NCBI GenBank assembly: GCA_017650305.1
Contig: JAGCFD010000035.1
Location: forward strand, 16,683 to 80,682
Reading direction: 5' to 3'
Source of the DNA: Bacteroidales bacterium
Lineage (GTDB): Bacteria; Bacteroidota; Bacteroidia; Bacteroidales; WCHB1-69
DNA length: 64,000 nucleotides
Below, piece by piece: positions 1-3,419 of this stretch. The notes beneath the pieces are model-generated. The model did not search any database, had not been told where the DNA came from, and saw only the letters and a list, made by a program, of their open reading frames with translations. The translations under genes and the position numbers were made by a program. Each line of letters starts with the position of its first letter. The stretch's first letter is position 1.

Positions 1-644
1 AGAGGACGATTGATTTCTATGTAGCATTCAGTGTTGTCGTCCCAATCGCTAAAGTGGGCACTTGTATGACCGTAGTTGTAATAGGGGACGTCGAATCTGA
101 TGCCGGCATCCGCCATGAAATAGAAGTTGTCGTTGAAAGGCAAATGGAATTCAAATTTAATTGGAAACAGAAGGGCGCCTTGGCTGAACCGATGGTGGTT
201 GGGATTGTGCCCCCAAAACAGGTCGGTGCTGGGGGAGTTCACTCGCAGCACATAGTGGGAGCCAAAACCCACCCCTACGGCCACACCGAAATACTTGGCG
301 AAATGGTAGGAGAATTCGAAACCTCCTGCGAACCCGCTCCCCATTTTGCTTGTGGGAGACCCGGGAGTGCCGTCGGCAGCGGTAAAAACTGCAGCTTGCG
401 TCATATTGTATTGTGCCGTGTAGCCGAAATGAAACCCTTTGAAGACATCGGGTACGAACTTTGCCGCCGGCTTGGACACGATGGGCGTGTCGGGCTGCGA
501 GGCTACGAATTGGTAGATGGTGTCGTGTAGATAGACGGTGTCATAGACAATTCGCTCCTCGTGGATGTAGATGGTGTCGCGCGCCTGCCCGTGCAAACCG
601 GTACACAAAAGCAGGGCGAATAGTAAAAATGTGGTCTTATGCAT
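1..644 (-). CDS. Outer-membrane beta-barrel protein (PorT/OMP-like), runs off left edge; not in ORF track
   Basis: Manual translation from ATG at 644: MHKTTFLLFALLLCTGLHGQARDTIYIHEERIVYDTVYLHDTIYQF...FKGFHFGYTAQY...GFAGGFEFSYHFAKYFGVAVGVGF...LLFPIKFEFHLPFNDNFYFMADAGIRF. Signal peptide plus amphipathic aromatic beta-strands; no stop before position 1. Confidence 0.75.
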   Translation of the reverse strand, partial: MHKTTFLLFALLLCTGLHGQARDTIYIHEERIVYDTVYLHDTIYQFVASQPDTPIVSKPAAKFVPDVFKGFHFGYTAQYNMTQAAVFTAADGTPGSPTSKMGSGFAGGFEFSYHFAKYFGVAVGVGFGSHYVLRVNSPSTDLFWGHNPNHHRFSQGALLFPIKFEFHLPFNDNFYFMADAGIRFDVPYYNYGHTSAHFSDWDDNTECYIEINRP

Positions 645-659
645 AGCGTTGTTTTTTTT

Positions 660-1706
660 TCATTGTTGATGGTTTTGGGGTGTTGGGGCATATACCGTGT
701 CGTGAACCACTTTCACCACGGTTTTATATACGGTATCGTGAATGATGATGTATTCTTTCTCACGGATAGAGTCAGCGGCACTGCCTGCCGGTGCCAGGTC
801 CTCCCTTTGGGTATTTTGGGTGGTGGTAGTCGCCATGACGGGATCGCTTTGTGCAGCCTCTGTTCCAGCGGAAAGGGTGGTGTCGGTGGCTACGGCGACG
901 GGAATAGGTGCTGTCGTCGGTGCCGGCGACGGGGCGACGGGTGTGCGGGACGACAGCATAAAGTAGGATGCCGTTCCCGCAGCAGCGCACAACAGCAGGC
1001 TGACCAGCAGTTTCTTGAGGATGCCGGACAGGCGCATGGCGATAGTGGCCGAAGGTAAGGTGCCCCACGACAGGGCCGCAATGTCAAGCTCGACTGTCGG
1101 CTCCACTTCGAAGTCCCTCAAAGTGCGCCAGCAAACGTTGTCCACGGCATGTCCCCTTTTGAAAATGGTTAAAAATGGAATCATAAGCAATCTTTTTTCG
1201 TTCTTTATCTCTTTCAGATGTTGTTGCAGTTGCAATCTGGCTTGAGCAAGATGCAACTTGGAGGTGCGTACTGCAATGTGGAGCGTGTCGGCAATCTGGC
1301 GATGACTGTATCTCTCGAAGACAAAAAGGTTGAACACCGTGCGTTGAGGTGCTGGCAAGGCCGCGATGGCTCCTATGATTTCCTCTTTGGAGAAGTCGGT
1401 GCGCTCCAGGTCTTCGGCTTCCTCATTCTGTAAGGAATCCAACTCAGGGCCTGCACTGTCAATACTGACGAGGCATTTTGCTTTCCGAAGATGCTGCAAT
1501 GCCGTGTTCACCGTGATGCGCATCATCCAGCCGTCAAAATCTCCCAATCCCTTGAATGTGTGCGACTTCTCGATGGCCGACAGGAAGGCCTCGTGTGCCA
1601 AGTCTTCGGCCTCCTGCGGGTTGGGTACATACCGCCGGCACAATCCAATCATCCTGCCGATGTTCCTCCGGTATTTTTTTGTCCAAAATTCCTGTGTGTT
1701 TTTCAT
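660..1706 (-). CDS. ECF sigma-70 factor fused to anti-sigma-like segment, transmembrane helix and Pro/Thr/Ala-rich tail
   Basis: Region 2 (EAEDLAHEAFLSAIEK, WMMRITVNTALQHLRK) and region 4 (LPAPQRTVFNLFVFERYSHRQIADTLHIAVRTSKLHLAQARLQL), then TM LLVSLLLCAAAGTASYFML. Start moved to ATG 1706 (MKNTQEF), downstream of a TATCTTTG promoter motif. Confidence 0.85.
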   Translation of the reverse strand: MKNTQEFWTKKYRRNIGRMIGLCRRYVPNPQEAEDLAHEAFLSAIEKSHTFKGLGDFDGWMMRITVNTALQHLRKAKCLVSIDSAGPELDSLQNEEAEDLERTDFSKEEIIGAIAALPAPQRTVFNLFVFERYSHRQIADTLHIAVRTSKLHLAQARLQLQQHLKEIKNEKRLLMIPFLTIFKRGHAVDNVCWRTLRDFEVEPTVELDIAALSWGTLPSATIAMRLSGILKKLLVSLLLCAAAGTASYFMLSSRTPVAPSPAPTTAPIPVAVATDTTLSAGTEAAQSDPVMATTTTQNTQREDLAPAGSAADSIREKEYIIIHDTVYKTVVKVVHDTVYAPTPQNHQQ

Positions 1707-1743
1707 ACGCTCTTTATGTACGATGCGAAAATTCTGAAAGGGG

Positions 1744-1751
1744 CAAAGATA
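1744..1751 (-). promoter_or_regulatory. Bacteroidota -7 promoter element (TATCTTTG) for ECF sigma gene
   Basis: Matches TAnnTTTG consensus, about 40 nt upstream of ATG 1706. Confidence 0.6.
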
Positions 1752-1871
1752 AAGAAAATAATTTTCAGGCATAACGACAGATAAATTATCAAGCACAAAA
1801 GAATAATGCAGATTATTTTTTGGGGTATTTTTTTTGGTGATCTATTATTTCCAATCGCATAACTATTTTTG

Positions 1872-1922: not shown

Positions 1923-3419
1923 ATGACACGACACAAAATCTCTACCAAGTTCCTCAGTATTGAGAAGGTTGAAAGAATCATCGACCGCAAACAGAAAATA
2001 GAATTGTCGCAGGAGGCCATCGACGCCATCCAGAAATGCCGCGCCTACCTGGACAAGAAAACCGACACCGAGAAGGAGCCCATCTATGGTGTGACTACCG
2101 GCTTCGGCTCCCTGTGCAACCGCAGCATCTCCAAGGAGGACCTCTCCACCTTGCAACGCAACCTTGTGATCTCCCATGCCTGTGGAGTGGGGGAGGAGGT
2201 GCCCCAGGAGATTGTGCAGCTGATGTTGCTGATGAAGATACAGTCTCTCTCTTATGGCCACTCCGGTGTGCAGTTGGCTACTGTGCAACGTCTGATTGAC
2301 TTCTACAACAAGGGTGTCTATCCGGTGGTCTATCAGCAGGGTTCGCTGGGCGCTTCCGGTGACCTGGCCCCGCTGGCCCACCTCAGCCTGCCGATCATCG
2401 GCATGGGCGAGGTGTACTATCGTGGTAAGAAGTACCCCGCCGCTGACATTAACGAGAAGTTCGGCTGGGAGCCTATCACCCTGCAGTCCAAAGAAGGTCT
2501 GGCTCTGCTCAACGGCACTCAGTTCATGAGCTCCTATGCCGTTTGGTTGCTCATCAAGGCCAAGAAGCTCTCCTGGCTCGCCGACATCATCGGCACCGTC
2601 TCCCTGGAGGCCTTCGACGGCTGCCTGAGTCCTTTCAACATCAATGTTCATCTGGTTCGCCCTCATGCTGGACAGATCATCACCGCCACCCATATCTACA
2701 ATATGCTGCAAGGCTCCGAGATTATCAGCCGTCATAAAGAGCATGTGCAGGATCCCTACTCATTCCGCTGCATGCCGCAGGTGCATGGTGCCAGCAAGGA
2801 TGCCATCACCCATGTGCAGGATGTGGTAGAGACCGAGATTAACTCCGTGACCGACAATCCGACGGTCTTCCCCGATGAGGATCTGGTCATCTCCGCCGGC
2901 AACTTCCACGGCCAGCCCCTGGCACTGGTGCTCGACTTCCTGACTATTGCGGTGGCCGAGTTGGGCAACATCTCCGAGCGCCGTATCTATCAATTGATCT
3001 CCGGCAAGCGCGGGCTTCCCTCTTTCCTCGTGAAAAACCCGGGCCTCAACTCCGGGTTCATGATCCCGCAGTATGCTGCCGCCTCTATCGTGAATCAAAA
3101 CAAAGCCTTCACAATGCCTTGCTCTACCGACTCCATCGAGTCTTCCCAAGGCCAAGAGGACCACGTCAGTATGGGTGCCAATGCCGCCACCAAGTGCTAT
3201 CTGGTCGTCAACAACCTCGAGAAGATCCTCGGCATCGAGTTGTTCAACGCTGCCCAGGCCCTGGAGTTCCGCCGCCCGTTGAAGTCCTCCCAGTTCATTG
3301 AGGATTTTGTGGCTGCCTTCCGTCAGGTGGTGCCTTTTGTGGAGAACGACACCTATATGCACGAGCTGATTCAGAAGTCTATCGACTTCGTGAATGGCGT
3401 TAAAGTGTTGATGGATTAA
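1923..3419 (+). CDS. hutH: Histidine ammonia-lyase
   Basis: YGVTTGFG, GSLGASGDLAPLAH (MIO Ala-Ser-Gly), QDPYSFRCMPQVHG, GNFHGQP, QEDHVSMG. Confidence 0.95.
   Translation: MTRHKISTKFLSIEKVERIIDRKQKIELSQEAIDAIQKCRAYLDKKTDTEKEPIYGVTTGFGSLCNRSISKEDLSTLQRNLVISHACGVGEEVPQEIVQLMLLMKIQSLSYGHSGVQLATVQRLIDFYNKGVYPVVYQQGSLGASGDLAPLAHLSLPIIGMGEVYYRGKKYPAADINEKFGWEPITLQSKEGLALLNGTQFMSSYAVWLLIKAKKLSWLADIIGTVSLEAFDGCLSPFNINVHLVRPHAGQIITATHIYNMLQGSEIISRHKEHVQDPYSFRCMPQVHGASKDAITHVQDVVETEINSVTDNPTVFPDEDLVISAGNFHGQPLALVLDFLTIAVAELGNISERRIYQLISGKRGLPSFLVKNPGLNSGFMIPQYAAASIVNQNKAFTMPCSTDSIESSQGQEDHVSMGANAATKCYLVVNNLEKILGIELFNAAQALEFRRPLKSSQFIEDFVAAFRQVVPFVENDTYMHELIQKSIDFVNGVKVLMD

Follow-up and report, generated by a model that had tools for sequence, protein, structure and literature searches.

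How could an extracytoplasmic function (ECF) sigma factor that carries its own membrane anchor be linked to an outer membrane (OM) beta-barrel encoded as a separate protein? The question is raised by two adjacent genes at the left end of a 64,000-nucleotide stretch of DNA (the window; G000:C56:16683-80682) from contig JAGCFD010000035.1 of a Bacteroidales bacterium (assembly GCA_017650305.1). The assembly measures 2.09 Mb, is 84.65% complete and has uncultured rumen Bacteroidales metagenome-assembled genomes as its closest named relatives. Gene 1 (P0001; 660..1706) encodes an ECF sigma factor with a membrane-spanning C-terminal extension. Gene 2, the 5' part of which occupies 1..644 while the rest continues to the left of the window, encodes an OM beta-barrel protein with a signal peptide. 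Both genes, and all of their features given below, lie on the minus strand.

A sequence-only reading of the window had taken the pair for a re-partitioned version of Bacteroides dual membrane-spanning anti-sigma (Dma) proteins. We propose that it is probably a two-gene, envelope-spanning ECF sigma module, resembling the Dma and ECF21 systems and cut at an unusual place, in which matching terminal repeats would dock the two proteins in the periplasm and proteolysis would release the sigma factor. Statements on published systems are drawn from the parts of PMC10927553, PMC13088901 and PMC7826278 (with its Supplementary Text) that were covered.

Structure and integrity of the sigma gene

Gene 1 is a single open reading frame (ORF) of 348 amino acids (aa) with an ATG start, no internal stop and a stop codon at window 660-662; it is identified by its ORF, Pfam matches, homologs and independent contigs. 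Its product contains sigma regions 2 (aa 12-77, 1476..1673; PF04542, Sigma70_r2, E 4.6e-16; pLDDT ~90 in the AlphaFold2 model) and 4 (aa 108-160, 1227..1385; PF08281, Sigma70_r4_2, E 5.7e-12) and no other sigma region, as is characteristic of the ECF (group 4) members of the sigma-70 family. It scores 75.1 bits with the TIGR02937 sigma70-ECF model (cut-off 42.9), and the best NCBIfam subfamily, the Bacteroidetes model TIGR02985, stays below its cut-off (83 vs 126.4 bits).

After the sigma domain comes a juxtamembrane segment (aa 173-232, 1011..1190) which, on the basis of conservation, profile searches and hhalign, is a candidate built-in anti-sigma element. It starts with a short hydrophobic stretch (aa 173-182), followed by a conserved helix (aa 187-203) within which the segment quoted by the sequence-only reading is found. 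Two of its residues, D189 and L196, do not vary among 25 aligned homologs, and the AlphaFold2 model has pLDDT values of 79-85 at aa 191-210. A single transmembrane (TM) helix follows (aa 233-251, 954..1010; hydrophobic 19-mer, Kyte-Doolittle >1.6), overlapping a modelled helix at aa 222-250; the KK pair on its N-terminal side fits a topology with the N-terminus in and the C-terminus out. The predicted periplasmic linker (aa 252-317, 756..953), recognized by its composition and by pLDDT <40, is rich in Pro, Thr, Ala and Ser, which account for 60% of the 62 residues at aa 256-317, and it varies in length and sequence among the 25 homologs. The unbroken order of sigma domain, segment, TM helix and Pro/Thr/Ala-rich tail described by the sequence-only reading is, in short, what the ORF contains. 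That reading had not listed the feature with which the protein ends, a hairpin-like strand-repeat motif of 22 residues with two HDTVY units (aa 318-339, 690..755), kept across subtypes of the family.

A gene of this kind might arise if an ordinary sigma gene had become joined to its anti-sigma gene through a frameshift, through loss of a stop codon or in a faulty assembly, and two observations could be cited for such an artefact or decaying gene. Three rare clusters of 172-174 aa contain the extension alone, all beginning at internal Met175, and a paralog in the same genome (C40, described below) carries a stop at the equivalent position. Such stand-alone forms, however, make up just 3 of 137 candidates. 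A word-indexed search with the gene 1 product gave 134 hits, and among the first 78 clusters listed, 74, from several sources, measure 328-463 aa and align mostly near end-to-end at 31-99% identity. When 1.84 billion representatives were scanned with HMMER and the 25-homolog alignment, 826 were recovered at E<=1e-30; 139 of the best 150 of these have at least 283 aa, and 124 of the 150 possess a hydrophobic 19-mer past residue 190. Contigs from three DNA runs of three studies match gene 1 without an indel (within 660-1706), and one independent contig covers 566-1948 unbroken. Their substitutions are mostly synonymous (22 changes giving 7 aa changes, 11 giving 2 and 3 giving 2) and none creates a stop. 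Because of the fused homolog clusters and these indel-free, stop-free contigs, we reject the artefact or pseudogene explanation, which has next to no probability left; the fusion is genuine and conserved. A stop or frameshift at the junction of sigma and tail, which the sequence-only reading had named as a danger to its proposal, is absent from the contigs of all three studies, and homologs keep both the fusion and the downstream neighbor.

In all 24 alignment rows that reach the boundary between sigma domain and extension, a Met is present at, or within two positions of, that boundary (aa 175 of P0001, window 1182-1184). One homolog, P0012, begins later, at the next internal Met. Internal initiation at the boundary Met, yielding a product without the sigma domain, is conceivable from this pattern; the residue may equally be no more than a part of the hydrophobic stretch.

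The barrel gene

Gene 2 starts at window 644, 16 nt beyond gene 1, and encodes 517 aa over its full length in the contig (G000:C56; L001:591-2144, minus strand). Its assignment as a signal-peptide OM beta-barrel protein relies on the ORF, the fold model and Foldseek. The signal peptide (about aa 1-20, 585..644) was read from the sequence as a basic N-terminus, a 14-residue hydrophobic core and small residues; orthologs do not keep its Cys, which makes a lipoprotein signal unlikely. At the mature N-terminus are three DT[IV]Y strand repeats (aa 22-44, 513..581), recognized by motif and by the co-occurrence described below. The sequence after these is beta-rich and ends in F, an aromatic residue as in OM barrels.

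The AlphaFold2 model, made from a 25-row alignment, is nearly all beta (mean pLDDT 67), with the N-terminal repeats disordered when the protein is folded alone (pLDDT <40). Almost all of the PDB matches listed by Foldseek for this model are OM barrels, led by OprG and OmpW (TMt 0.53-0.56) and then TodX and FadL. The Pfam OMP_b-brl_2 match falls below its cut-off (24.9 vs 27 bits). Taken together, the signal peptide, the predicted all-beta fold and the C-terminal aromatic residue characterize the gene 2 product as an OM beta-barrel protein, modelled with one or two barrels, as the sequence-only reading had anticipated for this left-hand ORF. Orthologs and independent contigs likewise have the barrel in a separate ORF with its own signal peptide. 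Judged by its homologs the protein is modular: those of ~300 aa match the first half only, those of ~439 aa and ~300 aa are without the N-terminal repeats, and those of 560-590 aa match over the full length at ~30% identity. No Pfam hit to FecR domains, or to a TonB-dependent receptor plug with a signalling domain, was obtained for either protein at E<=1.

Dma-type relatives in the same genome

In Dma1 a ~40-aa N-terminal region, which binds the sigma factor Das1, is followed by one TM helix, by a long stretch that is disordered and by an eight-stranded barrel of the OMP_b-brl_2 type (PMC10927553). The source genome encodes a protein of this layout. At the C40 locus (L097:1064-2827, plus strand), a 173-aa ECF sigma factor is followed by an in-frame TAG, one codon, and a 412-aa ORF that begins with the conserved post-sigma segment and goes on through a TM helix and a linker to a barrel. 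From its sequence the C40 pair could be either a Dma1-like split or a recently interrupted fusion of the Dma3 kind, in which the sigma factor is joined to the N-terminus of the rest (BT_2778; PMC10927553, section 11).

Both genes of the window pair share parts with this ORF. A profile of the post-sigma segment and TM helix of P0001 (aa 168-262) matched four of 13,112 ORFs in the genome, namely itself, the fused paralogs C39 and C10, and the C40 ORF (residues 9-86, E 8.9e-7). Profile search alone revealed this last match, BLASTP of P0001 against the 412-aa protein having given nothing significant. The post-sigma helix was also aligned by hhalign with the N-termini of five stand-alone anti-sigma factors near related sigmas (probability 64.6, P 6.3e-5, 21 columns). 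At the other end, aa 309-517 of the gene 2 product are 32% identical to aa 227-407 of the C40 ORF (E 7e-26). By these comparisons the extension of gene 1 and the N-terminal part of anti-sigma factors of the Dma type are homologous, as are the C-terminal barrel of gene 2 and the barrel domain of the C40 protein. The claim that the parts of a Dma system are present here and are cut at different places is upheld by the same two matches. Because the extension is homologous to that N-terminal part, the sigma domain is placed at the inner membrane by a tether.

The sigma family also includes members in which the parts have stayed together. In P0189 (600 aa), residues 1-351 align with a short fusion at 42% identity and are followed by a barrel-like C-terminus, by which it represents an all-in-one, Dma3-like layout. 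The hidden Markov model of the gene 2 barrel family (A2) had no match among 148 fused representatives tested; the all-in-one relatives P0189 and P0290 have barrels of other types than that of gene 2, and BLAST was also negative.

Other arrangements occur at further loci of the same genome. The C39 paralog (L096:1692-5931, plus strand) is a 451-aa sigma-TM fusion ending in WG-type repeats and is followed by a 312-aa DUF2807 protein and, after a gap, by a 482-aa homolog of the gene 2 barrel without DTxY repeats. From this layout it appears that the barrel family accompanies the sigma family even where there is no repeat joint. The C7 cluster (L084:1426-3146, plus strand) encodes a 193-aa OMP_b-brl_2 barrel with a signal peptide, a 187-aa ECF sigma factor and a 195-aa anti-sigma-like protein with a single TM helix as separate genes, which by sequence is yet another layout for parts of these kinds.

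Matching terminal repeats

The repeats at the end of gene 1 and at the mature start of gene 2 were counted over 80 related loci and the loci of the source genome, a downstream ORF being defined as one of at least 150 aa within 200 nt. The sigma fusions sort into subtypes by tail and neighbor. Those of <400 aa end in a strand-like motif, and this C-terminal motif is conserved across the subtypes. A DTxY motif is present in the first 90 aa of the downstream ORF for 39 of 41 such short fusions, with two or more units in 30, and for none of 23 fusions of at least 400 aa, which have WG-repeat, DUF2807 or other tails. Two further proteins called long were short-type proteins begun at an upstream ATG, and three long fusions had no downstream ORF. 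An ad-hoc regular expression for the 'hairpin-like' tail, which picked out 58 of 98 short representatives, was set aside as too crude to serve as a count.

The partner repeats begin within a few residues of the predicted signal-peptide cleavage site. In several lineages the net charge of the tail is opposed to that of the partner repeats (+3 to +7 vs -4 to -8), giving r = -0.65 for the 41 pairs; being related, these are not independent and represent perhaps six to eight independent lineages. The partners themselves comprise barrels in two parts (517-590 aa), barrels of the OMP_b-brl_2 type (~340 aa) and a ~234-aa protein. The last, found with subtype D (L016:5096-5806 and L043:2314-3018), has a signal peptide and DTxY but no barrel signature, and 2-3 predicted TM helices. 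Partners of subtypes B and C (L072:5023-6753; L020, minus strand) have a second, internal signal-peptide-like segment at residues ~110-135, ending Ala-x-Ala-Gln. It is situated after the repeats and a helical region, and is kept in the fused P0189 and C40; a second membrane pass, a cleavage site and a relic of gene fusion are the alternatives for it.

Comparison with the covalent relatives shows where the repeats stand. C40 is without the signal peptide and repeats of the partners, and its sequence connects straight to what comes after these: it matches residues 62-132 and 400-580 of the type-C partner, beginning at residue 62, and the first 61 residues of that partner have no counterpart in the C40 ORF. 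P0189 keeps the tail motif, which aligns with the repeat region of the type-C partner from residue 19 on. Matching repeats at the C-terminus of the sigma protein and at the mature N-terminus of its partner suggest a non-covalent handshake in the periplasm. Together, these observations on the repeats point to a joint made by strand pairing at the place of the peptide bond in Dma proteins.

The chief competing explanation is that the sigma fusion works on its own as a one-component membrane sensor and that the barrel is a co-transcribed target or cargo, DTxY serving self-association, binding of peptidoglycan or of a third protein, or targeting. ECF sigma factors with regulatory C-terminal extensions that act independently of a partner are common, with 19 groups described (Casas-Pastor 2021, PMC7826278), and the repeats occur on various kinds of partner, including the ~234-aa non-barrel protein. 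The C10 paralog in the same genome, moreover, has a similar tail without a downstream ORF. Against a sensor that needs no partner stand, on the other hand, the repeats placed at exactly the termini that would be joined in the one-polypeptide relatives, and their absence from the covalent C40 form, which is without the first 61 residues of the partner. The association of 39/41 vs 0/23 also speaks against it, as does the C-terminal half of gene 2, which is homologous to the barrel of a Dma-type regulator and corresponds in Dma1 to a part of the regulator itself (PMC10927553). We consider a one-component sensor unlikely, at perhaps one chance in a handful, and lean slightly towards docking of the sigma tail and the barrel.

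Tails of other types are paired with other OM or periplasmic neighbors, such as a TonB-dependent-receptor-like barrel or a DUF2807 protein. Family members of 619-642 aa are adjoined downstream by a TonB-dependent-receptor-like barrel with a plug domain (L012:5924-8374). Homologs P0017 and P0018 (446-455 aa) have a weak TonB_C-like C-terminal domain (17.8 bits, below the cut-off). These sequences give hints that different tails use different known modes of contacting OM barrels.

A model for signal transfer

From this anatomy we propose the following sequence of events. Gene 1 would provide a sigma factor that carries its own regulator, with a sigma-binding helix joined through one TM helix to a flexible linker in the periplasm, and the post-sigma helix would probably hold the tethered sigma domain inactive in cis. 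Gene 2 would provide a barrel protein that is exported by Sec and inserted in the OM. The matching beta-strand repeats at the C-terminus of the one and the mature N-terminus of the other would dock in the periplasm, replacing the covalent link of Dma proteins; we estimate that the linker of ~66 residues, if extended, is long enough to cross the periplasm. A change at the OM could then loosen the docking and expose the tether to proteases, upon which regulated intramembrane proteolysis would free the sigma domain. That loss of docking or perturbation of the barrel triggers site-1 and site-2 proteolysis of this kind is the step to which we would give slightly less than an even chance, as it is proposed by analogy with membrane anti-sigma factors and with the model of the Dma authors (PMC10927553).

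The sigma domain might instead never be released, either because it is active while tethered, in the manner of ToxR or CadC, or because the extension serves for localization, with the barrel acting by conformation and not by proteolysis. The two-gene operon includes no protease gene, its neighbors being convergent and divergent housekeeping genes, and nothing in the sequence demands cleavage. The sigma factor would nevertheless be expected to have difficulty in joining the RNA polymerase core on DNA with a tether only ~60 residues away from region 4 and a sigma-binding-like helix beside it, and we regard a permanently tethered sigma factor, in either form, as improbable.

Several points weigh against the proposal of a docked, Dma-like pair as a whole. 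Two short fusions are followed by an ORF of at least 150 aa that has no DTxY, and seven have no downstream ORF of that length, several of them at contig ends and two of the seven representing the same place. In the type C lineage both modules are net negative, contrary to the opposed charges seen elsewhere. Because the repeats are also present on a non-barrel partner, they may serve a more general role. Both repeat modules were of low confidence when folded alone by AlphaFold2. The likeness of the post-sigma segment to the N-termini of stand-alone anti-sigma factors is modest, and the C40 comparator is separated from its sigma factor by a lone in-frame TAG known from the assembly alone. Likeness to Dma3 (BT_2778) is drawn from published descriptions, and likeness to ECF21 from layout. 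Finally, the RNA-library contig across the gene junction that is described below is not proof of one transcript, as DNA could be in the library. A prediction of the complex between aa 21-517 of the barrel and aa 256-348 of the sigma tail gave a score of 0.04; having been run without controls, it counts neither way.

A wider, more tentative generalization, which we think possible though we would not bet on it, is that the two sets of repeats make up, as a split beta-sheet, a portable module for docking in the periplasm, by which hundreds of tethered sigma factors of Bacteroidota are plugged into OM barrels or other envelope proteins, with Dma as the fused form. If so, the split form would show a way to build a dual-membrane sensor out of an ordinary Sec/BAM substrate and an inner-membrane protein, and undocking would be the signal that triggers release of the sigma factor. 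A bolder addition to the docking-module idea is that the conserved boundary Met might permit a second, sigma-less product from the same ORF.

Comparison with published systems

The sequence-only reading had held that the parts were those of Dma proteins cut at other places, and that the resulting architecture had not been described. The first half of this statement stands on the homologies given above; the second does not, as similar architectures are already partly in print. Besides the Dma3 fusion (PMC10927553), the role of which is unestablished according to PMC13088901, the Supplementary Text of PMC7826278 describes for ECF21 an anti-sigma factor with a barrel at +1, a sigma factor fused to the anti-sigma-barrel (s12, s29), and decoupled proteins at +1 and +2 (s9, s16, s28). 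What was not found in the literature searched is the particular cut into sigma-antisigma-TM and separate barrel; the supplement of PMC7826278 was covered in part, and its later ECF groups may mention it. Apart from the Dma papers and the ECF classification, searches for membrane-tethered or fused sigma-anti-sigma proteins likewise brought up no mention of this layout.

Dma3 and ECF21 s12/s29 are the nearest in composition, with an N-terminal sigma domain, an anti-sigma-like segment, one TM helix, a disordered linker and association with an OM barrel, and they too are restricted to Bacteroidota. As in Dma3, the sigma domain of gene 1 is fused N-terminally and there is no separate adjacent sigma gene. 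Unlike them, the gene 1 polypeptide ends before the barrel, which is encoded by a separate gene, has its own signal peptide and bears repeats matching the C-terminus of the sigma protein. The gene 2 barrel is also larger than those of Dma3 type, as far as BT_2778 can be compared by description, with 517 aa and an extra N-terminal barrel-like half.

Dma1 and Dma2 (BT_4721 and BT_1558, with Das1 and Das2) and Reo/EcfO of B. fragilis share with the pair one TM helix, a disordered tether and an OM barrel, by which they link the OM to an ECF sigma factor, and their sigma-binding region has a candidate counterpart in the post-sigma segment. There the sigma factor is separate and tether and barrel form one polypeptide, whereas here the cut falls between tether and barrel. 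The Dma1 barrel is eight-stranded and matches OMP_b-brl_2, a model with which the gene 2 product remains below the cut-off. The gene 1 product does have the single alpha-helical TM segment and long disordered, predicted periplasmic region of the Dma family, but not the defining C-terminal OM barrel in the same polypeptide spanning both membranes; since that one-polypeptide feature is absent, the gene pair is not Dma proper.

As in ECF21 s9/s16/s28, the OM barrel is a separate gene downstream of a membrane-spanning regulator; those systems have three genes (sigma, anti-sigma at +1, barrel at +2), whereas here sigma and anti-sigma parts are one protein. The Supplementary Text of PMC7826278, in the part covered, does not mention matching terminal repeats for ECF21, and the matched terminal repeat module is apparently an unreported observation.

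In principle the pair resembles FecI/FecR/FecA, where an OM barrel uses an N-terminal periplasmic extension for non-covalent contact with a regulator in the inner membrane, at the periplasmic C-terminus of the latter, and so controls an ECF sigma factor; the Dma authors themselves compare Dma with cell-surface signalling of this type (PMC10927553). It is not a member, however, for that system has three proteins, with FecA a TonB-dependent transporter possessing a globular signalling domain and FecR having defined domains. ECF41, ECF42, ECF249s14/ECF52, ECF204 and ECF270s2 also combine sigma factor and regulator in a single protein. Their extensions are mostly soluble (SnoaL-like, TPR, zinc-binding) or the groups are actinobacterial, and none is described in the sections covered with an OM-barrel docking motif. 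The gene pair would act in the manner of a Dma or cell-surface-signalling system, and we class it as a variant in layout among the Dma/ECF21-like systems.

Distribution and significance

Among Bacteroidales of the rumen and gut the sigma family is abundant, and a single genome often encodes several paralogs. Among the clusters listed, members that are named by their source are called plainly sigma-70 family or ECF sigma factors, and no functional study of this family was found in the literature searched. Given its size and abundance, the family may be a major, overlooked coupling of envelope events to transcription. An order-level search of 400 genomes gave generic ECF sigma matches in 361 of 401 genomes, and was used for paralogs and long frames, not for family counts. 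Two open frames, 771 and 769 aa long (with ORFs measuring 769 and 767 aa), were considered as barrel fusions and rejected, as they have WG-repeat tails instead.

The Dma authors ask how one polypeptide enters both membranes and how a signal crosses the periplasm (PMC10927553). The split pair would offer a simpler system for these questions, comprising an ordinary secreted barrel and a tether that ends in a motif matching the N-terminus of that barrel. The joint can be severed, exchanged or crosslinked and the halves expressed apart, which makes Dma assembly and signalling directly testable.

Transcription and flanking genes

A metatranscriptome contig of 187 nt (window 624-810) is a perfect match over the gene junction, from the last part of gene 1 through the 16-nt spacer into the beginning of gene 2, and is compatible with co-transcription. 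The RNA runs covered small shares of the stretch only, and this one contig permits no estimate of the expression level.

A conserved element lies upstream of gene 1 (1707..1752, minus strand), with blocks that are invariant in six of six orthologous upstream regions. It includes TTTGCCC, then at ~14 nt downstream GCATC, which in three of the six regions has GTA after it, and then TTAAAGAG, and ends ~10 nt before the ATG at 1706. The element may be a promoter, perhaps an autoregulated one. It contains CGTA but differs from the published ECF21 motif, predicted as GCAACC (-35) and CGTCT (-10) (PMC7826278, Supplementary Text).

The genes on either side are a convergent methyltransferase-like ORF and a divergent ORF of 498 aa (window 1923-3419, plus strand), neither of which is a sigma gene. 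Since these neighbors are convergent and divergent, the gene pair stands by itself.

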